Below are positions 1 to 8,457 of a stretch of DNA of 8,457 nt, piece after piece. Each line of letters starts with the position of its first letter. Position 1 is the stretch's first letter. The notes under the pieces are model-generated. The model saw only the letters and a list, made by a program, of their open reading frames with translations. It ran no database searches and was not told where the DNA came from. Origin of the DNA: an uncultured archaeon (GTDB lineage Archaea > Iainarchaeota > Iainarchaeia > Iainarchaeales > CSSED10-239); contig CAZPGO010000002.1 of assembly GCA_964586355.1 (NCBI GenBank), positions 1-8,457 of the forward strand. The letters run 5' to 3'. Made by a program: the position numbers and the translations under genes.

Positions 1-558
1 ATTTGCACTTTTTGTATCTGCTGATAACCCTAGTTCAATAAATTTTATTTGTTTATAGTTTTTTCCATATGCTTCTTTTATAGATCTGTTATTTGCATAT
101 ATTCCAAAGTATGGTGTGAAAGCGTGTGCTGGTCCAATCAAGACCTCGTATTTAACACAGATATCTAATAGTTTGTCTGGTCCAATAGAAAGTCTTGGTC
201 TTCCTCCTCCATATACATTCATATCAGAAGAATATTTTTCTATTTCTTTTTTAAATTTTTCAATAACTTCAAAGTTTTTAAAAAATATTAAATGATGTAC
301 TCTTCCTTTTGTTTCTACTTCTGTTGTTAATAAGAAATATGTTTTTTTTTCTTTATCTTCTTTATAATAATAACAATCATTTTCTTCTTTTAGGTTTTCT
401 TTTACATGAGCTAACCATTTTGGGTGTAATATATCTCCAGTACCAATAAGATCTAGTCCTTTTAATTTTGCTTCTTTTGCTAAAACAGGTATACTCATAT
501 TTTTAGATACTCCTGCTGCGTATGGTGAATGAATATGTAGATCTATATTATATTTCAT
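1..558 (-). CDS. PHP-domain phosphoesterase, endonuclease Q (EndoQ/TIGR00375)-like. N-terminal 186 codons only; the 3' end runs off the window.
   Basis: Hand translation of the minus strand from the ATG at 558-556 gives 186 codons with no stop: MKYNIDLHIHSPYAAGVSKNMSIPVLAKEAKLKGLDLIGTGDILHPKWL...GRVHHLIFF...GGGRPRLSIG...LIGPAHAFTPYFG...ELGLSADT. The blocks DLHIHS, GTGD..HP, HH, GPAH..TP and ELGLSAD match what I recall for PHP-fold EndoQ-type proteins. It is absent from the supplied ORF track because the window edge truncates it. Confidence 0.8.
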   Translation of the reverse strand, partial: MKYNIDLHIHSPYAAGVSKNMSIPVLAKEAKLKGLDLIGTGDILHPKWLAHVKENLKEENDCYYYKEDKEKKTYFLLTTEVETKGRVHHLIFFKNFEVIEKFKKEIEKYSSDMNVYGGGRPRLSIGPDKLLDICVKYEVLIGPAHAFTPYFGIYANNRSIKEAYGKNYKQIKFIELGLSADTKSAN

Positions 559-671
559 ATTTTTTACTCTCTTTATTATTATTTGTGTTTGCCTGTTCTT
601 TTATTTTTTTCTATTTTATTTAATGATTTGTTTTTATTTGTTTTGATTCTATTTTAAATAGATGATTTTTT
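559..671. promoter_or_regulatory. Divergent intergenic region between the PHP gene (-) and the 427-aa gene (+), containing several TATA-like boxes
   Basis: The 113-nt AT-rich spacer lies between two divergently oriented starts. TATA-like strings include ttttatttaat (about 614-624) and attttaaata (651-660). The direct repeat ctatttt occurs at 611-617 and 649-655. Part of this spacer is duplicated at 2294-2364. I cannot assign transcription start sites from sequence alone. Confidence 0.35.
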
Positions 672-1955
672 ATGAAACAAATATATGTTTTTTTATTATT
701 GGGCTTTTTTTTACTTTCTTTTTTTAATTACCTTTCTGCAGAAATGTTTTATGGGGATGGAACTTATGATGTAAAGGCAGGAGATTTTTTAATTGCAGAT
801 AATGGTTGGAAATTGGAAGTTGATGTTTTGCTTTCTGCACACAAGGGTGACGAAATAATTTTTAGTCTTTATGATTCTGAAGGTTTTATTTCTATAGCCA
901 ATGCAAGTAGTTTAAATATTAATGAAGGTTCAAAAAAAATTGGACCCGCACCAAATTTAAAAATAAATTTAGAGTTGTTAGATGTTTTTGGTGAATCAAC
1001 ACCAACAGATTCTCCAATTGCTTTTGTTAGAGAATTTGCAAAAGTTAAAATAACGTCTATAGATGAGGATTTGCCTTCAACTGTAAGTGATAGTTCTGAG
1101 GATGAATTAGAAATAATTAATAAAGATTTAACTTTTAAAAATGCTACCAAATTTAATTTAGCTCTTGGAGAAAAACATATTTTAAAAAATGGTTATAAAT
1201 TGGGTTTAATTGATTTTGATATGCGTTTTAATTCGCCAATGTTCTCTTTATGGAATGAAAATGATGACCTAATTTTAGATTCTTTTTTTATTACAAAAAA
1301 ACCTCAAAATTCTTTTGGAACTTTGGTTTTTTTAGATGATTATGATTCAGACTCTGTTTCTTTAAAAAAAATTGAGGGTTCTCATTTTGTTTTTGGTTCT
1401 GGTTGGAATTTATTTTCTATATTTTTAGATGATGGTTCTGGTTTTGGAACTGTTTTAGAGACCACTTGTAATAATGGTGTTTTGTGGATTTGGAATCCTG
1501 AGTTAGATGATTATGAAAATATTGGTTTTCTGGAAGTTGGTCAAAAAATTCCTTCAAATAAAGGTGTTTGGATTAAAGTAACTGTAGAGAATAATTCAAA
1601 TGCTGATTTTGCCTGTGAGACTATTATATCTGGATCAAAATCTGTTACAACTAAAGGTCAAGAACTAAAAGCCGGTTGGAATTTAATTGGCGCCCCAATA
1701 ACAGCAAATGGAAAAAGTATTGTTACAGTAAATCAAACAACAAGGCAATTATTAAATATCAATGATATTTTAGGAGATTGTAAACTAGAAAAAGGCCCTT
1801 GGCAATTTGTGAGTTCACGATATTCTTCTTTTTTACTTCTAGATAATTTAACAGATCTTGGGGTTTTTTCTAAACCAATAGATAATAATTTAAGATTAAA
1901 CTATGGTTATTTTGTTTTTGTTTCTAAAAATTGTGTGTTAGGTGATGTAAATTGA
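672..1955 (+). CDS. Secreted protein of unknown family with 2+2 internal module duplications
   Basis: The ORF is 427 aa, with ATG at 672 and TGA at 1953-1955. The N-terminus looks like a signal peptide (MKQIYVFLLLGFFLLSFFNYLSA) and there is no other hydrophobic helix. There are two N-terminal modules (NGWKLEVDV..IIFSLYDSEG and NGYKLGLIDFD..MFSLWNENDD). There are two C-terminal modules opening with GSGWNLFSIF and KAGWNLIGAPI and closing with KGVWIKV and YGYFVFV. I cannot name a family with confidence. Confidence 0.8.
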   Translation: MKQIYVFLLLGFFLLSFFNYLSAEMFYGDGTYDVKAGDFLIADNGWKLEVDVLLSAHKGDEIIFSLYDSEGFISIANASSLNINEGSKKIGPAPNLKINLELLDVFGESTPTDSPIAFVREFAKVKITSIDEDLPSTVSDSSEDELEIINKDLTFKNATKFNLALGEKHILKNGYKLGLIDFDMRFNSPMFSLWNENDDLILDSFFITKKPQNSFGTLVFLDDYDSDSVSLKKIEGSHFVFGSGWNLFSIFLDDGSGFGTVLETTCNNGVLWIWNPELDDYENIGFLEVGQKIPSNKGVWIKVTVENNSNADFACETIISGSKSVTTKGQELKAGWNLIGAPITANGKSIVTVNQTTRQLLNINDILGDCKLEKGPWQFVSSRYSSFLLLDNLTDLGVFSKPIDNNLRLNYGYFVFVSKNCVLGDVN

Positions 1956-2173
1956 AAAAAATGTTTTTTATATTTATTATAATTATTTTATTTTTAACTG
2001 TTTCTTTAGTTGTCTATAATTTATTTATATCTAGTGAAGCAGATTCTCAGGATTTTATTAGTAATTCAGATTATAATAATTCAGACATTACAGATAATCA
2101 AAATCAATATGGTTATTCTGTTTTAGAAAATTCAGAAGTAGATTTTGAAAAGCCACCTCGTCCACCAGAATAA
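1952..2173 (+). CDS. Small single-pass membrane protein with an acidic, Asn-rich tail
   Basis: The TTG at 1952 overlaps the upstream TGA (aTTGA). An ATG at 1961 is an equally plausible start. The protein has one N-terminal TM helix (FFIFIIIILFLTVSLVVYNLFI) followed by SEADSQDF..NQNQYGYSVLENSEVDFEKPPRPPE. A near-identical 5'-truncated copy lies at 3221-3412. Confidence 0.6.
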   Translation: MKKMFFIFIIIILFLTVSLVVYNLFISSEADSQDFISNSDYNNSDITDNQNQYGYSVLENSEVDFEKPPRPPE

Positions 2174-2293
2174 AAGTTTGTTTTATTTTAAATTATTCTA
2201 TTTTATAAATTTTGTTAAAATAAATTAATTCCTATTTTTAGATGCGGCTGCTGCGTATGGTGGCTGAATGTGTAGATCTATATTGTATTTCAT
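1982..2293. repeat. Long direct repeat, copy 1 (3' two-thirds of the 73-aa gene, its downstream spacer, and a PHP-gene 5' fragment)
   Basis: Hand alignment to 3221-3538 shows 12 substitutions and one 6-nt indel over about 312 nt, roughly 96 percent identity. Confidence 0.9.
2233..2293 (-). pseudogene. Remnant of the PHP/EndoQ-like gene: first ~20 codons only
   Basis: The segment aligns to 498-558 at a constant offset of 1735. It reads MKYNIDLHIQPPYAAAASKN then RN-stop, compared with MKYNIDLHIHSPYAAGVSKN in the intact gene. Homology to the gene body stops at tatttttagat. Confidence 0.85.
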
Positions 2294-2406
2294 ATTTTTT
2301 ACTCTCTTTATTATTATTTGTGTTTGCCTGTTCTTTTATAATTTTCTATTTTTTTAAATAGATATCTAAATGATATCTTTAAAACAATTGTGGATCTATA
2401 TTATTT
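2294..2406 (+). promoter_or_regulatory. Duplicated promoter block upstream of the toxin-antitoxin pair, with a TATA-like box and a tandem operator-like repeat
   Basis: Positions 2294-2339 are identical to 559-604, and 2346-2364 match 649-663. A TATA-like tttttaaata lies at 2351-2360. It is immediately followed by the tandem repeat AAATAGATATCT (2356-2367) and AAATGATATCT (2368-2378). This places two GATATCT cores 11 nt apart, and tagatatcta (2359-2368) is a 10-bp palindrome. The ATG of the RHH gene is at 2407. Confidence 0.45.
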
Positions 2407-2700
2407 ATGATTAAAAATACATCTAGAGATGAATTTATTATAAGGTTGTCTGGAAAACACAAACAATGTCTTGATGAATTATTAACACAGGGTTATTTTT
2501 CAAATAAGAGTGAAATAATAAGGCATGGAATTTTAGAGGTGAGTAAAAAATATTTGCCAAAAAATGATTCTTCTCAAGAATTGTTATTAGTTGGAAATGC
2601 AATTAAAAGAGAACTAGATCAATTAAATAAATCTGGTGCTGAGTTAATTTCAGAGAAAGATTTTTTAAAAGATTTTCCTCATCTTAAAAAAGTAAAATAG
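2407..2700 (+). CDS. Ribbon-helix-helix (CopG/Arc-like) antitoxin candidate
   Basis: The ORF is 97 aa. The N-terminal segment EFIIRLSGKHKQCLDELLTQGYFSNKSEIIRHGILEV fits the RHH strand-helix-helix pattern, including the SEIIR motif. The C-terminal half is charged and of low complexity. The stop is 2 nt before the toxin start. Confidence 0.65.
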   Translation: MIKNTSRDEFIIRLSGKHKQCLDELLTQGYFSNKSEIIRHGILEVSKKYLPKNDSSQELLLVGNAIKRELDQLNKSGAELISEKDFLKDFPHLKKVK

Positions 2701-2702
2701 GT

Positions 2703-2963
2703 GTGGCGTTGTATCTTATTTTTTTAACTCCTGAATTTAAGAAGGATTTTAGTAAATTGGATAAGCAATTTCAAATACACATTTATAAAAAAATCAAAAA
2801 AATATCTTCTTTGCAAACAAACAAACATTTGAAACACAGTCTCCCATATTTTGTTGAAAAATCTGCGGATGGTTCTAGGTTAGTGTATATTTTAATTGAT
2901 AATAAATTAACCATAATCCGATTTTTTAAAACACATAAAGAATATACTAAATGGTTAAAATGA
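2703..2963 (+). CDS. RelE/ParE-superfamily toxin candidate
   Basis: The ORF is 86 aa with a GTG start at 2703. The layout fits small RelE/ParE-like toxins: YLIFLTPEFKKDFSKLDKQFQIHIYKKIKKI....HLKHSL....EKSADGSRLVYILIDNKLTIIRFFKTHKEY. That is an N-terminal strand, a helix with an FKKD..KLDK motif, a central RLVY strand, and a C-terminal basic/aromatic HKEY. It is paired with the upstream RHH gene. Confidence 0.55.
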   Translation: MALYLIFLTPEFKKDFSKLDKQFQIHIYKKIKKISSLQTNKHLKHSLPYFVEKSADGSRLVYILIDNKLTIIRFFKTHKEYTKWLK

Positions 2964-3049
2964 ATGCTTTTAAATATTTTAAAAAACAAAAAAATAAGTT
3001 GTGCTGCTTGTAATGGATATTGTGTAATTAAAAAAAACTAAACTGGTTT
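2964..3049 (+). pseudogene. 5' remnant of the radical SAM gene
   Basis: The ATG at 2964 abuts the toxin TGA (tgaATG). Positions 3000-3049 align to 6031-6080 with 4 mismatches. The remnant keeps the CxxCxxxC frame (SCAACNGYCVIKKN) and then hits a TAA at 3039-3041 where the intact gene has CAA (Gln). Homology ends at 3049 and is fused to sequence matching 8216 onward. Confidence 0.8.
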
Positions 3050-3050
3050 C

Positions 3051-3227
3051 AAAAAACTTAAGGATTAACATTGTTCTAAGCCCTGCAATTCCAAATATTG
3101 CTGATACTACTATTGTTGCCCAAATTGGTGGTTTAATAACTAATAAACAATTACATACTAAAAACCCAACAACTCTAATAATACTATTTAGCAAAATATT
3201 TTTTAAAAAAAAAGATTGTAATTATTG
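3051..3227 (-). pseudogene. N-terminally truncated copy of the BofA-like membrane protein gene (supplied ORF 2979-3194)
   Basis: The segment aligns to 8217-8392 with 14 substitutions and an A9/A8 indel, about 92 percent identity. It encodes ..LKNILLNSIIRVVGFLVCNCLLVIKPPIWATIVVSAIFGIAGLRTMLILKFF. The native stop is lost, so the frame reads on through the radical SAM remnant. There is no ATG and the upstream TM helix of the native gene is missing. Confidence 0.7.
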
Positions 3228-3412
3228 TATTTTTAACTGTTTCTTTAGTTATCTATAATTTATTTATATCTAGTGAAGCAGATTCTCAGTGTTTTATTAG
3301 TAATTCAGATTATAATAATTCAGACATTACAGATAATCAAAATCAATATGGTGATTCAGTTTTAGAAAATTCAGAAGTAGATTTTGAAAAGCCACCTCGC
3401 CCACCAGAATAA
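3221..3412 (+). pseudogene. 5'-truncated copy of the 73-aa membrane protein gene
   Basis: The frame is preserved to the same KPPRPPE-TAA end (stop at 3410-3412). The frame opens only after a TAA at 3179-3181, with no ATG, GTG or TTG start before the homologous region. There are 7 nt differences from 1982-2173, giving V>I, D>C and Y>D changes. Confidence 0.7.
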
Positions 3413-3477
3413 AAGTTTGTTTTATTTTAAATTAAAATAATTCTATTTTATAAATTTTGTTAAAATAAATTAATTCC

Positions 3478-3538
3478 TATTTTTAGATACGGCTGCTGCG
3501 TATGGTGACTGAATGTGTAGATCTATGTGGTATTTTAT
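3478..3538 (-). pseudogene. Second remnant of the PHP/EndoQ-like gene 5' end, with the start codon lost
   Basis: The segment aligns to 498-558 (offset 2980) and to 2233-2293 (offset 1245). The position of the start codon reads tat (ATA) instead of cat (ATG) at 3536-3538. It shares the ggctgctgcg and ctgaatgtg variants with the 2233 copy rather than with the intact gene. Confidence 0.8.
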
Positions 3539-3690
3539 AAATAGTTATTTGATAAATATTTATTTAAGTTGTCATAAGCAAAACAACCTCTTTTTAAATA
3601 TATCTATCTAATTAAGAAAACATTATGCTTTATATAGATTTTACAACATAACTTATTTATATTAGTCTTATTGTTTTTTTTTTGCTCGGT

Positions 3691-3718
3691 AATATTTTAA
3701 ATTTAGAGGTGTGTTATA
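3691..3718 (+). promoter_or_regulatory. TATA-like box and Shine-Dalgarno-like site upstream of the 753-aa gene
   Basis: The string aatattttaaat lies at 3691-3702. GAGGTG lies at 3706-3711, 7 nt before the ATG at 3719, and is complementary to the usual 16S 3' end. Confidence 0.45.
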
Positions 3719-5980
3719 ATGAATTTAAAAATTATTTTTAAAAGTTTTAATTTGCTATTAATCTTTATTTTTTTATTTTCAACGGTTTTTGCTGAGATTA
3801 ATGTTGTTGACTTTAGTAGTGATGCTAAGGAGCCTGGTTTTTTGGGTATTGGTGATTCTATTTCTTTTTATATTAAATTAAATGAACCCATAGAAAACTT
3901 AGAAATTAGTCCAAAAGAATATAATTCTAAATTAATAGAATGGAAATCAAATAAAGATCATTCAGTTTATTCTGCAAAATATGTTGTAGAAGAAGGAGAT
4001 CCTTCTCATAAAGATCCTTTGCAATTAGGTGTTTTAGTTTTAAGATCGGCTGATGATGAATTAAAATTAGAATCAAAAAAAATTGTTTTTAAGTCAATAG
4101 ATTCTATAAGACCAAAAATTATTGATGTTATTTTTTCAAATATATCTTATTTAAATAAAGAAAATTATCCTCTTACTTTTTTGCTTGATAGAAAAGAGGT
4201 TGATGGTATTTTAACGTATTCTTTTTTCTCGAAAAATCAAGACATTACAAGAACTATTGAATTAAATGAGCTTTATTCTCGTGTAGAGGGCGTTATTGAT
4301 TTACAAAAAGAGGTTCCTTTAACAATATATGAAAATCTTTCTTTTTTTGAAGATGGTCTTGTTTTTTTAAAATTAAAAATAACTGATCATGCAAATAATT
4401 CTGTTTATTTTGAAGCAGACATTATTAAAGACGATATTTTACCTGAAATAGTAAAAATTGATGCTGATTTTATTACAAATACTAATTTTGAATCTTATTC
4501 TTTAGATTTAAAAATAAACAAACCATGTAAATTAGCAAAATTTATTTTTGCCGACACTCAAAACACTTTAAGTTTTGAAAGAAATTTTGATGAGGTTAAA
4601 AATCTAGATCATTCTTTTTCTGATTTTGATCTCTCTAAATTAAAGGATGGTGTTGTTACTTTAAATGTTGTTTTATTTGATTTGTCAAATAACGAAAGTA
4701 AACTTTATGAATTTGATTTATATAAAGACACTGTGATTCCAAAATTAAATTTAGATCAAGAAAATTTAATTTTACATAATAAAAAAGAAATTACTTTTAC
4801 TGGTTTAGTTATTGACAATTTGCATGAAAATATAAAAGTTAATTATTCTAAAACTCATGAGTCTGGTGATGTTCAAGATCTTGATGTTTTATATGATTGT
4901 TCTGTATTTTATAGTCCATGTTGTTCAGGTAACGGCTATAATTATGTTACTTGTGAAATTGATGGTTTAGTTGAAGGAAATAATAAAATATTAATTAGGG
5001 CTATTGATAGAGTAGGTAATGAAGACAAAAAAGAAATTAGTCTGTCTATTAGTACAGAACCTGTTGATTTAAAATTTCATTATGGAAATAGGTTTGTTGT
5101 AAATACCGCTCCTTCTGTGATAAAGGGAGATGCGATTTTAAATCCAATTGCTAATGTTAAAACTTTTGTTGCTGTTTTAAGGCTTGTGGATTCAACACAA
5201 CCTCTTAAATATAATAAATATGCTCCAATAATAGATGGTGATAATTTTCTTATTGATTTAGAAAAACCAATTAGTGGTAGTAATCTTTTTTTGCCTTTAG
5301 TAGAGGGTGAGTATCTTTTAACTATTTTTTTAAAAGATGATTATGGTAATTCTATTTCTAAAGCACAAGTCATTATAATTGATAGTACAGCACCACAATT
5401 AGAAATAAATAATCTGTCTACAAGTAATAGACAACCAACAATTACTGGTAAGGTTGTTGATAAAACAAAAACAGATGTTTTGATAACTATTAATTCAAAC
5501 GACTATGTTGCTACTGTTGTTGATGGTTCATGGAGTGCACAAATTACAAATACTTTGCCTCTTGGTATTCAAAATGTAAAAGTTGTTGCAAAGGATGAGG
5601 CAAATAACCGATCCGAAATTGAAAGCACGGTGTCTATTAATTCTACTGGTGGTGGTTCTAGATTTACTGCTTTGCCAGCACAAGAAGCACTTCCAGAGCA
5701 AGAGCAAGAAACTGTTTCAGAGAGTGTTGTTGATGAAACTCCAGTGATTTTAGATGATTCGCCGAATAATTTGCCAGCTCCTTCTCAAAGCAATACATTA
5801 CAAGAACCGATTGAAAATCTAGAATTTATTGAAGATCAAGTTGAACAACCACAAACAACAGGTGGACTAACTGGTTTTGTTGGTTTTGCTAATAAACCAC
5901 AAGGCATTGTAACAATAGTTCTTAGTATTTTTTCTGTTGTTGGTGTTTTGGGCTATTTGTTTGTTTTTAAGAAAAGATAA
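3719..5980 (+). CDS. Large cell-surface protein with tandem bacterial-Ig-like modules and a C-terminal membrane anchor
   Basis: The ORF is 753 aa with a signal-peptide-like N-terminus (FNLLLIFIFLFSTVFA). There are at least five module ends with the D-x-x-(G/A/S)-N motif followed by a D..x.P boundary: ITDHANNS..KDDILPEI, LFDLSNNES..KDTVIPKL, AIDRVGNED, LKDDYGNS..IDSTAPQL and AKDEANNRS. The module TITGKVVDKTKTDVLITINSNDYVATVVDGSWSAQI is classic for Ig-like adhesin repeats. There is a Cys cluster (CSVFYSPCCSGNGYNYVTC). The protein ends with an acidic Pro/Gln/Glu linker, a TM helix and a KKR tail (GIVTIVLSIFSVVGVLGYLFVFKKR). Confidence 0.85.
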   Translation: MNLKIIFKSFNLLLIFIFLFSTVFAEINVVDFSSDAKEPGFLGIGDSISFYIKLNEPIENLEISPKEYNSKLIEWKSNKDHSVYSAKYVVEEGDPSHKDPLQLGVLVLRSADDELKLESKKIVFKSIDSIRPKIIDVIFSNISYLNKENYPLTFLLDRKEVDGILTYSFFSKNQDITRTIELNELYSRVEGVIDLQKEVPLTIYENLSFFEDGLVFLKLKITDHANNSVYFEADIIKDDILPEIVKIDADFITNTNFESYSLDLKINKPCKLAKFIFADTQNTLSFERNFDEVKNLDHSFSDFDLSKLKDGVVTLNVVLFDLSNNESKLYEFDLYKDTVIPKLNLDQENLILHNKKEITFTGLVIDNLHENIKVNYSKTHESGDVQDLDVLYDCSVFYSPCCSGNGYNYVTCEIDGLVEGNNKILIRAIDRVGNEDKKEISLSISTEPVDLKFHYGNRFVVNTAPSVIKGDAILNPIANVKTFVAVLRLVDSTQPLKYNKYAPIIDGDNFLIDLEKPISGSNLFLPLVEGEYLLTIFLKDDYGNSISKAQVIIIDSTAPQLEINNLSTSNRQPTITGKVVDKTKTDVLITINSNDYVATVVDGSWSAQITNTLPLGIQNVKVVAKDEANNRSEIESTVSINSTGGGSRFTALPAQEALPEQEQETVSESVVDETPVILDDSPNNLPAPSQSNTLQEPIENLEFIEDQVEQPQTTGGLTGFVGFANKPQGIVTIVLSIFSVVGVLGYLFVFKKR

Positions 5981-5985
5981 TTTTT

Positions 5986-6849
5986 ATGTCTTTTACTTTT
6001 TTTTCTATTTTGGGTGTTGCTGAAATTAAATGTACTGCTTGTAATAGATATTGTGTAATTAAAGAAAACCAAACTGGTTTTTGTAAGGTTAGAAAAAACA
6101 TTAATGGTTCGTTAGTTTCTTTAGTTGATAACAAGCCCATTGCTATTGCCATAGATCCAATTGAAAAGAAACCACTTTATCATTTTTTACCTAAAACAAA
6201 AACTCTTTCTTTTGGTACTGTTGGTTGTAATTTTGATTGTGCTTTTTGTCAAAATTTTTCAATATCTAATCCAAAAGAATTCAATTTGGATTTGTTACCT
6301 ATGGTGTCTGAACAGCAGATTATTGATCTCGCACTAAAAAATAATTTGCCCTCTATTTCTTACACCTATAATGAGCCAACAGTTTTTTCTGAGTTTGCAC
6401 TAAGGGTTATGAAGTTAGCTAAGAAAAATAATCTAAAAAATATCTGGGTAAGTAACGGATACATGTCTAAAGAGGTTTTAAAAGAGCTAACCAAGTATCT
6501 TGATGCTATTAACATAGATCTAAAAGGTGATCAAGCTTTTTATGATAACTTGATTCCTGGCATTAATGTTGATATAATTAAAGAGAACATAAAATATTTG
6601 CATAAAAAAGGTGTCCACGTAGAAATAACTAATCTATTACTTGAAGGTTATAATACTAAGAAAGAACAGATTCAGGAAATAATTGATTTTGTTTCTTCTA
6701 TATCTTCTGATATTCCTCTTCATTTTTCTAGATCTTTTCCTTGTTATAGATTAAAGGATATTACTCCTACAAAAATAGAGTCTCTTAAACTAGCAAAAGA
6801 TCTTGCAATTTCTAGTAGATTAAAGAATATTTATTTAGGAAACATTTGA
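5986..6849 (+). CDS. Radical SAM enzyme, AmmeMemoRadiSam-system / PflA-activase-like
   Basis: The ORF is 287 aa. It has an N-terminal auxiliary Cys motif (CTACNRYCVIKENQTGFCKVRKN), then DPIEKKPLYHF, then the CX3CX2C core (GCNFDCAFCQN). The C-terminal end is KNIYLGNI. This order of blocks is what I recall for TIGR04337-type enzymes. The start is 5 nt after the stop of the 753-aa gene. Confidence 0.8.
   Translation: MSFTFFSILGVAEIKCTACNRYCVIKENQTGFCKVRKNINGSLVSLVDNKPIAIAIDPIEKKPLYHFLPKTKTLSFGTVGCNFDCAFCQNFSISNPKEFNLDLLPMVSEQQIIDLALKNNLPSISYTYNEPTVFSEFALRVMKLAKKNNLKNIWVSNGYMSKEVLKELTKYLDAINIDLKGDQAFYDNLIPGINVDIIKENIKYLHKKGVHVEITNLLLEGYNTKKEQIQEIIDFVSSISSDIPLHFSRSFPCYRLKDITPTKIESLKLAKDLAISSRLKNIYLGNI
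6783..6849 (+). repeat. Direct repeat, left copy (the functional 3' end of the radical SAM gene)
   Basis: Positions 6791-6849 match 8141-8199 at a constant offset of 1350 with 4 mismatches. Two of those convert TGA to TAG. The match extends about 7 nt further left with a 1-nt indel. Confidence 0.9.
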
Positions 6850-6853
6850 TTTT

Positions 6854-8044
6854 TTATTCGCAGATTTTTTTAAGATTGGTAGGATCGTAAATTGTAATAT
6901 CTTCTATTTTTTGTTTGTTATTTTTTTCTTTTACAAATAAAAATTTTGTTTTTGCATCAATATTTAGATTTTCTTTAACAGTAGTTATTTTTACTGCATC
7001 TATTTTTTTCCATTTGATAGATCCAACAATTTCTATTTTTTTAAATTTTTTTAAAACCACATCAATTTCTTGATCTGGTTTATTATAGATTACTTTTGTC
7101 AAACCTTTTTTTTCTATTAATAAATCAGAAATAAAATCTTCTATATAAAAGGACACTTTATTTTGCCAGGCTTCTATTATTTCTTTTTCACTTACATTCT
7201 CGCCATATTTTGTATTTAAGTAAAAGAAAAAATCTATTGGTGTTGATTTTATTTTATATTTGTATCTTTTTTGATTATATATTTGTGTTTTTTCTAAAAC
7301 CCCTATATTTACTAATGTATTAATATATGCTGATATTGCTCCAGGCGTTTCTTTTGAAATTATTTTTTGGTTATATAAATTTGTAGTAATTTCTCCAATA
7401 GTTTGATGTCCTGTAGATACATTTCTAATAATGGCGTCATATGTTTCTGTTAATATTTTATCTTCATCTTCAAAGATCTCTCCAAATAATGCCACTGACC
7501 AATATTTTGCAAATTTATAGTATTTTAATAAAAAATCAGTAAACTTTTCTTTTTGATCATATAGTTCTATCAATGTTGGCTCTCTAAAAAATATTGCTTG
7601 TTCCATAAAATTGTTTTTATTTTTTAAATTAGTAATTATTTCACAAGGGGTTATTAATCTAAATTCTATGGGATAAACTAATCCTAAAATAGGGGATTTA
7701 CTTGCTAATATTTTTTTTGCAATATGTAAAGAGGATGTTATTATAATTAAATTATTTAGTCTTTGACTATGTAAAAAATCAGTAAAATCATCTCCTAGTC
7801 TATGAAATTCATCAACCACTATAACTTTGTCTTTGTTTTCTAATATATATCTTTTTAGTTCTTCATATTGCCAATTTTCATTAGTTTCTACGTTTTTTAT
7901 TGACTTGTCTCTATATATGAAAAAAAACTTATTATATTTTATAAAGTTTTGAACATAAAATGATTTTCCTGTTTTTCGTCTACCATAAACTAGTTTTATT
8001 TTATTTGTTTTAAATTCTTTTAAATAGTTTCTAGTTATAATCAT
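6854..8044 (-). CDS. AAA-type ATPase of the archaeal ATPase (Arch_ATPase) family with wHTH and a DUF234-like C-terminal domain
   Basis: The ORF is 396 aa. Walker A is VYGRRKTGKS (residues 19-28) and Walker B is VIVVDEFH (residues 74-81). A wHTH-like segment reads TIGEITTNL...ISAYINTLVNIGVLEK. The C-terminal QEIDVV...IVGSIKWKK resembles the DUF234 signature. The gene converges on the radical SAM gene with only 4 nt between the two stops. Confidence 0.8.
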   Translation of the reverse strand: MIITRNYLKEFKTNKIKLVYGRRKTGKSFYVQNFIKYNKFFFIYRDKSIKNVETNENWQYEELKRYILENKDKVIVVDEFHRLGDDFTDFLHSQRLNNLIIITSSLHIAKKILASKSPILGLVYPIEFRLITPCEIITNLKNKNNFMEQAIFFREPTLIELYDQKEKFTDFLLKYYKFAKYWSVALFGEIFEDEDKILTETYDAIIRNVSTGHQTIGEITTNLYNQKIISKETPGAISAYINTLVNIGVLEKTQIYNQKRYKYKIKSTPIDFFFYLNTKYGENVSEKEIIEAWQNKVSFYIEDFISDLLIEKKGLTKVIYNKPDQEIDVVLKKFKKIEIVGSIKWKKIDAVKITTVKENLNIDAKTKFLFVKEKNNKQKIEDITIYDPTNLKKICE

Positions 8045-8080
8045 AATTATAATAATTGTGATTATATTTAAAAATAGATC
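8045..8080 (-). promoter_or_regulatory. TATA-like box for the ATPase gene
   Basis: The minus strand reads ctatttttaaatataatcacaattattataattATG. The TTTAAATA core corresponds to plus-strand positions about 8063-8070, roughly 23 nt from the ATG. This spacing would fit an archaeal leaderless or short-leader transcript. Confidence 0.4.
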
Positions 8081-8133
8081 TATTTCTATTAAGCCCTATA
8101 TTTACCCTGTGCATATTTATAAAATTGTACCGA

Positions 8134-8199
8134 TCTTAACTAGCAAAAGATCTTGCAATTTCTAGTGGATTAAAGAATGTTTATTTAGGAAACATTTAG
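8134..8199 (+). repeat. Direct repeat, right copy (orphan 3' end of the radical SAM gene)
   Basis: It would encode LAKDLAISSGLKNVYLGNI-TAG in the original frame, compared with LAKDLAISSRLKNIYLGNI-TGA in the intact gene. No upstream coding sequence is attached to it. Confidence 0.9.
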
Positions 8200-8204
8200 A
8201 AAAA

Positions 8205-8457
8205 TTAAAAAATCCCAAAAAACTTAAGGATTAACATTGTTCCAAGCCCTGCAATTCCAAATATTGCTGATACAATTATTGTTGCCCAAATAGGTAGTTT
8301 AATGCCTAGTAAAAAATTACATACTAAAAACCCAACAACTCCAACAATACTATTTAGTAAAATATTTTTTAAAAAAAAGATTATGATTATTGCTAAAATA
8401 ATAAAAATAACTCCAAATATTAAAACCTTAGGGTTATTGATAAGACCAGTAGCAGTA
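8205..8457 (-). CDS. Small multi-pass membrane protein, BofA-like (pro-sigmaK processing inhibitor family fold). C-terminal 83 codons only; the 5' end lies beyond the window.
   Basis: Hand translation of the minus strand gives TATGLINNPKVLIFGVIFIILAIIIIFFLKNILLNSIVGVVGFLVCNFLLGIKLPIWATIIVSAIFGIAGLGTMLILKFFGIF, with the stop at 8207-8205. The pattern N-S-I-x-G-x-x-G......I..N/P.W....V.A..G.PG resembles BofA-family proteins as I recall them. It is not in the ORF track because of edge truncation. Confidence 0.6.
   Translation of the reverse strand, partial: TATGLINNPKVLIFGVIFIILAIIIIFFLKNILLNSIVGVVGFLVCNFLLGIKLPIWATIIVSAIFGIAGLGTMLILKFFGIF

Follow-up and report, generated by a model that had tools for sequence, protein, structure and literature searches.

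Arrays of displaced, or orphan, modules at rearrangement hotspot (Rhs), contact-dependent inhibition (CDI), and type VI secretion system (T6SS) effector-immunity loci have been explained as the outcome of modules displacing one another in succession, by homology-facilitated illegitimate recombination (Kirchberger et al. 2017, PMC5361080). Replacement flexible genomic islands are exchanged by homologous recombination in their flanks (Lopez-Perez et al. 2014, PMC4033161). Here, we analyzed an 8,457-nt stretch of DNA, hereafter the window, from an uncultured DPANN archaeon of the Iainarchaeota (assembly GCA_964586355.1, contig CAZPGO010000002.1, positions 1 to 8,457 of the forward strand), in which a 5' fragment of the gene for endonuclease Q (EndoQ) recurs twice, each time ahead of other genes. 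The window is probably a small flexible island in which three versions of one variable slot have been stacked beside EndoQ, and the repeated junction would then be a fixed scar of ordinary genome plasticity rather than a device for active cassette switching.

The window is AT-rich (G+C ~25%). A repeat finder and gapped self-BLAST located the motif tatttttagat(a/g)c..ctgctgcgtatggtg in three copies, at 498, 2233, and 3478, and the start-to-start distances between the EndoQ fragments are exactly 1735 nt and 1245 nt. The repeated piece corresponds to EndoQ codons 1 to 20 (61 nt on the minus strand, the gene ending at 558), and we call the native sequence A and its two copies A' and A''. A differs from A' at 7 of 61 positions and from A'' at 8 of 61, and the two copies differ from each other at 5 of 61. 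The duplication also extends to the left of the junction, where the tail of a 73-aa gene and the spacer that follows it are present twice (1976 to 2232 and 3215 to 3477), and in the 244 nt to the right of the junction zone these copies differ by 6 substitutions and a single 6-nt indel. Therefore, the same fusion is present twice. The first-pass annotation of this DNA had reported the junction at 2233 and 3478, with these offsets, and had described three head-to-tail units that each open with an EndoQ 5' fragment and carry different cargo; both observations were borne out.

We named this illegitimate junction J1, the second J1 being at 3477/3478. On its left, positions 475 to 497 and 2210 to 2232 are identical at 15/23 positions, a score equaled by only 21 of 8322 other window positions, so the crossover may fall anywhere in 475 to 498. 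J1 therefore coincides with, or adjoins, a small partially homologous patch. Together with A, the intergenic stretch upstream of EndoQ (ig1) was duplicated in part (498 to 624 versus 2233 to 2359). When EndoQ sequences from related loci (L012, L013, L035, L022, and L021) were used as outgroups, A' and A'' were found to have four derived changes in common, of the T>G, A>C, and A>G types, and both retain an ancestral G where the intact EndoQ now has a C. With their breakpoint and derived changes in common, the two EndoQ joints are copies of one event.

In order to place the units, we compared the window with 118 other EndoQ loci, which were searched with the window proteins and collected partly via an alignment query. 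The relatives have a conserved backbone composed of EndoQ (minus strand), a radical SAM (rSAM) gene (plus strand), and a 105-aa membrane-protein gene (minus strand). EndoQ and rSAM are back to back in L019 and L100, where the slot between them is empty, and L043 and L044 have EndoQ and rSAM plus the membrane gene. An RHH/RelE pair occupies the EndoQ-rSAM gap in L035 (EndoQ 89% identical) and L022; a surface-protein homolog is found there in L013 (EndoQ 87%), L094, L097, L024, and others; and small open reading frames (ORFs) fill it in L020 and L058. In L012 and L014, rSAM is gone and a 15-nt exact remnant of its 3' end lies beside the membrane gene, and therefore the surface-protein and rSAM genes of these loci were lost by deletion. 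At the amino acid level, the flanking EndoQ and membrane genes are 86 to 91% identical, with different content between them. In L021 (EndoQ 87%), the ~1.6 kb upstream of EndoQ (positions 1 to 1620) contains no ORF longer than 63 aa and has no similarity to any window gene; it may be yet another state of the slot.

Units 2 and 3 of the window each proved colinear with single-version relatives. The segment from 2233 to 3049 follows L035 and L022 through the EndoQ start, ~66 nt of proximal intergenic sequence, the AGATATC..GATATCT repeats, the antitoxin gene, the toxin gene, and the rSAM start; the overlap of the toxin stop with the rSAM start is common to both arrangements, and the pair that L035 carries between EndoQ and rSAM is 81% identical to that of the window at the amino acid level. 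Therefore, unit 2 is a native toxin-antitoxin-type arrangement. In unit 3, the 180-nt intergenic region between A'' and a 753-aa surface-protein gene (x) gave a local alignment with L097 at a z of 4.4, which 0 of 300 shuffles reached, and homologs of the surface protein occupy the same position in L013 (56%), L097 (43%), and L094 (34%). Since x is colinear with L097, L094, L031, and L024, unit 3 is a native surface-protein-type arrangement. Two shorter matches around x were not retained: similarity of 3539 to 3583 to the EndoQ-membrane-gene intergenic region of L012 was not significant (z = 0.9), and neither, on its own, was a BLAST extension matching 3623 to 3718 to the upstream region of L013. 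The rSAM remnant that closes unit 2 begins with MNAFKYFKK, which resembles the rSAM of L035 (MNSLNYFKR) and not the intact rSAM of the window, whose start (MSFTFFSIL) resembles that of L013 (MSFSFFSIL); by these N termini, the two rSAM 5' ends are of different allele types.

In unit 1, the distal part of ig1 still has TGATTCTATTTTA, which is found just upstream of the RHH start in L035, and this toxin-antitoxin-type sequence persists in the unit 1 intergenic region to ~17 nt before the start of a 427-aa gene. This places the DNA of the 427-aa and 73-aa genes just upstream of an antitoxin start, together with a ~163- to 174-nt duplication of A and its intergenic region. The two genes and their spacer (~661 to 2232) would thus be the DNA that is new at this locus, and the pair was not found next to EndoQ in the other EndoQ loci. 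The first-pass annotation had explained the second junction as another round of duplication of 498 to 2232. The comparison does not support this, since unit 2 is native and the 427-aa/73-aa pair is the intruder, and since another illegitimate joint (J2) lies to the left of the second junction copy and marks a second duplication with end points of its own.

The repeat searches returned three further repeat pairs in the window beyond those in the first-pass annotation. Positions 2992 to 3049 match the 5' part of rSAM (6023 to 6080) at 51/58 positions, and a remnant of the membrane gene matches 8216 to 8392 with 93% identity over 163 nt, or 88% when gapped. What had been recorded only as gene remnants in unit 2 is, by these alignments, an internally deleted rSAM joined to a membrane gene that lacks approximately its first 44 codons. 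J2, at ~3217 to 3228, falls inside two coding genes and joins the membrane gene at about codon 44 to the 73-aa gene at codon 9, with an ATTATT microhomology. At the other end of the window, the last 21 rSAM codons (6783 to 6848) recur at 8134 to 8198, forming 66-nt direct repeats around an ATPase gene, and the distal copy keeps an ancestral G,G, as do L013 and the L012 remnant. The features are collected in Table 1, with the abbreviations that we use for them. For annotation purposes, the short ORFs at 2233 to 2293, 2960 to 3049, 3050 to 3227, 3215 to 3412, and 3478 to 3538 should be treated as pseudogene relics.

Table 1. Features of the window, in order of position. J1 to J3 are illegitimate junctions; primes mark copies, remnants, or displaced ends. 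Private derived changes were counted after substitutions had been polarized with outgroup sequences.
Feature	Positions	Strand	Private derived changes	Remarks
EndoQ gene, 5' 186 codons	1-558	-		PF27218 MJ0043_C, TIGR00375; reading frame intact; conserved anchor of the locus
A, native EndoQ codons 1-20	498-558	-		Origin of the 61-nt repeat; in every relative joined to the remainder of the gene
ig1, EndoQ-upstream intergenic	559-671	.		z = 3.6 against L013
B, gene for 427-aa secreted protein	672-1955	+		Unit 1 cargo; homologs merely 36-49% identical
C, 73-aa membrane-protein gene (1952-2173) and spacer (2174-2232)	1952-2232	+		J1 at 2232/2233
A', EndoQ 5' pseudogene fragment, copy 2	2233-2293	-	2/61	Reads as a 22-codon ORF ending in the spacer
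ig1', native intergenic of the toxin-antitoxin-type arrangement (copy of ig1)	2294-2406	.		AGATATC..GATATCT operator-like repeats; colinear with L035, L022
T, antitoxin-like gene (97 aa, 2407-2700) and RelE/ParE-family toxin gene (86 aa, 2703-2963)	2407-2963	+		Unit 2 cargo; both intact
R5', rSAM 5' pseudogene remnant	2960-3049	+	6/58	ATG overlaps the RelE stop; 8-nt deletion and in-frame stop; ends at J3 (3049/3050)
M', remnant of the 105-aa membrane-protein gene	3050-3227	-	8/167	Without approximately the first 44 codons and the stop
C', partial copy of the 73-aa gene, and spacer copy	3215-3477	+		Starts at codon 9 of the 73-aa gene, without a start codon; 6-nt insertion in the spacer
A'', EndoQ 5' pseudogene fragment, copy 3	3478-3538	-	3/61	Start codon mutated to ATA
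x, EndoQ-to-surface-protein intergenic, upstream of S	3539-3718	.		Colinear with L097, L094, L031, L024
S, gene for 753-aa Ig-like-repeat surface protein	3719-5980	+		Unit 3 cargo; C-terminal membrane anchor; Big_13, Glucodextran_B domains
R, intact AmmeMemoRadiSam-system radical SAM gene	5986-6849	+		Conserved backbone; TIGR04337 241 bits versus cutoff of 220
I, inserted segment with a 396-aa AAA ATPase gene (6854-8044)	6849-8133	-		66-nt direct repeats on either side
R3', displaced resident copy of the last 21 rSAM codons	8134-8198	+		Adjoins the membrane-gene stop
M, intact 105-aa membrane-protein gene	8208-8457	-		Conserved distal flank; runs off the window; 90-91% amino acid identity in L012, L013

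We propose the following history for the stacked versions. In a genome of the toxin-antitoxin type, the 427-aa/73-aa DNA would have been joined just upstream of the antitoxin start, and an accompanying duplication of ~163 to 174 nt (EndoQ codons 1 to 20 plus upstream sequence) would have created J1 and left EndoQ intact. A microhomology-mediated duplication, or an unequal exchange between haplotypes, reaching from codon 9 of the 73-aa gene to approximately codon 44 of the membrane gene, could then have made J2 and copied J1 along, which would yield the second J1. In one of the copies, the cargo may have been exchanged, by homologous recombination with a diverged relative, for a surface-protein-type allele, with one crossover close to where A'' ends, in the EndoQ 5' end, and the other no earlier than rSAM codon 12, maybe even past the membrane gene. 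These last two steps may have taken place in either order. The proximal rSAM, being redundant, would subsequently have lost its middle and 3' part at J3, and the truncated membrane-gene copy and the EndoQ fragments would have decayed. In a separate step, the ATPase segment would have entered at the rSAM 3' end with a 66-nt duplication. Every addition consists of an insert and a duplicated end of the neighboring gene, the pattern to be expected when DNA recombines by one homologous and one illegitimate end or when a circle is inserted by a single crossover. The same explanation has been proposed for the displaced-module arrays at T6SS and Rhs loci (PMC5361080).

Like the arrays at Rhs, CDI, and T6SS loci, the window has a conserved gene as homologous anchor and no integrase, its modules are single in related strains and stacked in some, and anchor-gene fragments lie between the modules at illegitimate joints, the older copies being nonfunctional relics. 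Unlike in those arrays, the cargo is functionally unrelated to the anchor, a DNA-repair enzyme; the fragments are the 5' end of a divergent gene and not toxin tips; there is one independent anchor junction, the second having arisen by duplication; and the host is a DPANN archaeon, with a mechanism that we infer. The likeness to replacement flexible islands lies in the different content found between the same conserved flanking genes in relatives, in the enrichment of exposed surface proteins, and in a substitution peak in a flanking gene (EndoQ 100 to 289). In contrast to such islands, the locus is very small, with 1 to 3 genes per version; its versions were added successively and not replaced; and one of them is a toxin-antitoxin pair.

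The head-to-tail repeats, the microhomology at J2, the patch at J1, and the decayed copies are also what microhomology-mediated tandem duplication followed by pseudogenization leaves behind. In plain tandem duplication, however, copies would not differ in cargo or have flanks that match two allele types of relatives, and therefore duplication alone is insufficient. Accordingly, a single large tandem duplication as the sole origin of the second copies was rejected, since cargo, allele type, and divergence differ between copies. With integron arrays and tandem island accretion, the locus shares serial units that have common ends and different cargo, as well as the restoration of interrupted gene ends, but it has no integrase, attC-like element, or common recombination motif, and its repeats differ in length. 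The locus behaves as a replacement flexible island that turned additive in one lineage, and it resembles the displaced-module arrays; it is a flexible island of a known kind, newly documented in DPANN archaea. Its value lies in an unusually legible stepwise record of how a tiny flexible island was remodeled beside a housekeeping gene in an uncultured DPANN archaeon, and it adds evidence for exchange of diverged DNA, microhomology-mediated rearrangement, and gene conversion in these archaea with small genomes. It reveals no new molecular system or switching mechanism.

The copies appear to differ in age. The two copies of the 73-aa gene differ at 6 of 244 positions, and 4 of these are changes of the functional copy that are absent from L143, a 2%-diverged strain from sample 3300077567 whose sequence corresponds to window positions 1975 to 3038 and runs from the 73-aa gene through the spacer, A', the antitoxin, and the toxin to the rSAM remnant. 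The rSAM and membrane-gene remnants together have 14 derived changes in 225 positions versus at most 3 in 244 on the 73-aa copy (Fisher p = 0.005). These unequal ages fit an imported rSAM/membrane-gene pair and a recent J2 that joined arrangements in which these genes had already diverged, or else homogenization by conversion.

Exchange between the copies was apparent. The three private changes of A'' are clustered in its last 12 nt, beside x, and positions 3489 and 3508 within it are polymorphic, with L006 (window positions 2775 to 6912, sample 3300001533) showing G,G at both, the A' state. In L143, A' is native-like at 2244, 2263 to 2264, and 2285 and lacks two of the changes shared by A' and A''. 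The states of L006 and L143 indicate that short patches have been exchanged among the repeat copies in a gene conversion-like manner. The earlier claim that copies 2 and 3 are sisters thus holds in the strain of the window, where the shared derived changes support it, but is blurred by L143.

Recombination has also left a mark within EndoQ itself. The window has 29 differences (15%) over the 190 nt from 100 to 289 compared with the otherwise identical L009, L002, L003, and L010, from which it differs at one further position in the remaining 8.2 kb. The segment looks like an imported or templated recombination tract, and on this pattern of differences it would be the footprint of recombination with a diverged relative. 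Such footprints are known from the edges of replacement islands (PMC4033161), and a DPANN Diapherotrite population has been reported to undergo homologous recombination (PMC5905446). For an uptake of linear donor DNA with one homologous and one illegitimate end, which we put forward as a putative route, the tract is indirect support. The window version of this tract resembles neither L012 nor L013, and CTGGTCCAAT is present twice.

Several smaller patches were seen near the repeats. At positions 2012, 2114, 2161, and 2194, the 73-aa gene of L143 has the state of the second copy in the window. The first 46 nt upstream of the EndoQ start (559 to 604) are identical to 2294 to 2339, versus 7 differences in the adjoining 61-nt fragment (Fisher p ~0.02); the stretch is either a constrained promoter-proximal relic or the product of a recent conversion. 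Overlapping the antitoxin start, positions 2389 to 2411 (TGTGGATCTATATTATTTATGAT) match the first 23 nt of EndoQ (536 to 558) at 19/23 positions, a match reached nowhere else in the window beyond the three known EndoQ 5' copies. Since L143 has six clustered differences from the window in this region (2385 to 2397), the segment may be a short templated patch.

We considered whether the stack could have arisen within one genome, by tandem duplications and by later, independent insertions in which other parts of that genome supplied the toxin-antitoxin genes and the gene for the surface protein, with no import. Both cargo versions, with their flanks and the first rSAM codons, are colinear with different single-copy relatives, which would be unexpected for independent insertions. 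Replication slippage or unequal sister exchange typically leaves microhomology such as that seen at J1 and J2, and the remnants are closer to the rSAM and membrane genes of the window (88 to 93%) than to those of relatives (74 to 80%), as such an origin would have it; the unequal ages of the copies and the mosaic tract in EndoQ speak against it, and on balance we regard it as unlikely.

Less likely still is the model of the first-pass annotation, in which a 1735-nt unit (498 to 2232) was tandemly duplicated twice, its cargo was swapped later, and the repeats are still active. The exact 1735-nt offset and the twofold junction suit it, and so do the start codons of the 427-aa and antitoxin genes at equivalent positions (672 and 2407), the different cargo of related genomes, and the short patches exchanged between copies. 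Against this, unit 2 is the native single-copy arrangement of L035 and L022, including the rSAM start, and at no time derived from unit 1; the model leaves J2 and the remnants of rSAM and the membrane gene unexplained; and self-BLAST revealed no trace of a second 427-aa gene. Variation in the number of units among relatives had been proposed as a check, and a second EndoQ 5' fragment was found at 0 of the 118 other EndoQ loci, under conditions in which the positive control returned both extra copies of the window.

The population data bear on the same model. Exact-protein look-ups retrieved the whole order in six long contigs from six samples, at 99.6 to 99.9% identity (JGI samples 3300077563, 3300077564, 3300077317, 3300077522, and 3300001335 in full and 3300001533 in part), and colinear subsegments in short contigs of sample 3300077567 and of the Logan runs SRR2986055, SRR1179191, and SRR2989655. 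No alternative order or structural variant was seen among the contigs with an exact match to the RHH, 73-aa, 427-aa, or rSAM protein. An exact J1 search of another collection of metagenome contigs, which apparently does not include these samples, gave no match. Ongoing swapping or deletion of cassettes, as first suggested, is therefore not what these contigs display: one order is present in every contig, and the only exchange seen between copies is that of short patches. What survives of the cassette-exchange idea is the clear difference in cargo between related genomes, set against a single fixed arrangement in the sampled population.

Very improbable, in our view, is a site-specific system in which small circles integrate at the EndoQ 5' and rSAM 3' ends through a recombinase encoded elsewhere. 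Two of the insertions restore the interrupted gene end and leave direct repeats (66 nt and ~170 nt), and units with common ends and different cargo are what such a system would generate. Yet the repeats are unequal in length and consist of gene fragments, not of a shared motif; EndoQ contains a single independent junction, and such a repeat is missing from the 118 other EndoQ loci; and J2 lies within coding sequence. Domain searches of the window ORFs found no recombinase or integrase, in agreement with the first-pass annotation, and PADLOC, tRNA, and Rfam searches of the window returned nothing, so no integrase, tRNA gene, or known RNA element accompanies the repeats. Finally, wrong concatenation of strain variants or collapsed repeats by assemblers, which the first-pass annotation had allowed for and to which the breaks of short-read Logan contigs within the repeats could point (L011 spans 575 to 2042 and L005 starts at 3459), can be set aside as the least probable explanation of all, since independent assemblies of at least six samples, drawn from several projects, all gave this order, the copies differ by 2.5 to 12% and have different illegitimate junctions that assemblers do not invent, and the 2%-diverged strain has the junction too.

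Some points weigh against the stacking of slot versions that we favor. We found no donor genome with the 427-aa gene immediately after EndoQ. The order of events is not fixed by the sequence, as tandem duplication with cargo replacement and unequal haplotype exchange predict the same outcome, and the evident gene conversion between copies makes ages based on divergence unreliable. With a single independent junction in EndoQ, this gene is not indicated as a preferred joining point. All of the population evidence comes from assembled contigs, in which minority variants stay hidden. Lastly, the toxin is a predicted one and the antitoxin has no family match, which weighs on any role of the pair in locking the stack.

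Such a role is nevertheless worth stating. The toxin-antitoxin pair is the only intact content of unit 2, and recombination between the direct repeats on either side could remove it; this hints that the pair may stabilize the stack. A stronger form of this idea, which we offer tentatively and consider rather doubtful, is that the pair makes the slot "add-only": recombinants that replace or delete unit 2 would lose the antitoxin and be killed, so that incoming slot versions could merely stack and the direct repeats around unit 2 could not resolve. If true, the locus would offer a concrete example of a flexible island whose architecture has been shaped by a toxin-antitoxin pair, and it would show that DPANN archaea exchange diverged DNA by one homologous and one illegitimate end.

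The assignment of this pair rests on family-level comparisons. An exhaustive search collected 34 homologs of the 86-aa toxin, where a word-indexed search had given only three proteins, and the profile built from them matched RelE (4v7k, E = 2.8e-5) as well as YoeB and HigB. PF05016 was matched by 11 of the 34 members, and the window protein alone scored 17.9 bits against the family model, under the 23-bit cutoff. When compared singly with PDB sequences, neither the toxin nor the antitoxin gave a significant match. By its family profile, the 86-aa protein is a member of the RelE/ParE superfamily. The 97-aa putative antitoxin had no Pfam, NCBIfam, PADLOC, or PDB sequence match; the gene order and the 2-nt gap would fit a type II toxin-antitoxin system, and operator-like GATATC repeats are located upstream.

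The anchor, which the first-pass annotation called a PHP gene, is EndoQ: PF27218 is recorded on its product, and its homologs are named as members of the endonuclease Q family, which has been described previously (PMC4357722). The match to TIGR00375 (E = 2e-77, 261 bits) is below the equivalog cutoff of 326. The full-length protein has 421 aa in L009, and homologs at 40 to 63% identity come from sources named Iainarchaeota/Diapherotrites. Homologs of the 427-aa secreted protein are paired with a 72- to 78-aa gene, and the pair is conserved in other archaea. In L015 and L018, a T2SSE/T2SSF pilus-like cluster comes after the pair, and by this gene context the window may carry a pilus-associated module that has become detached. 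In detail, the homologs are followed by small-protein clusters plus T2SSE and T2SSF (type IV pilus-like) at 1933 to 9346 in L015 and at 8001 to 17290 in L018. A homologous pair is also present in L016 and L017, where its neighbors are typically bacterial genes (gyrase A, IF-2, and RbfA).

A second variable slot lies in the convergent gap between the rSAM and membrane-gene 3' ends. It is empty in L095 and L043, contains an unrelated 278-aa gene in L013 (5744 to 6580), and holds the ATPase gene in the window. No ATPase homolog was found in any of the related loci, and the 278-aa gene of L013 was rejected as a relative of the ATPase (E = 3.7). The same gap measures ~0.7 to 1 kb in L097 and L094. 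The remnant in L012 and L014 reads AATGTTTATTTAGGA, the last rSAM codons, and is located just past the membrane-gene stop; a 744-aa protein comes next in these two loci and is 40% identical to the product of the gene that follows the membrane gene in the genome of the window. In L006, a 7-nt deletion at 3961 to 3967 frameshifts the 753-aa surface-protein gene.

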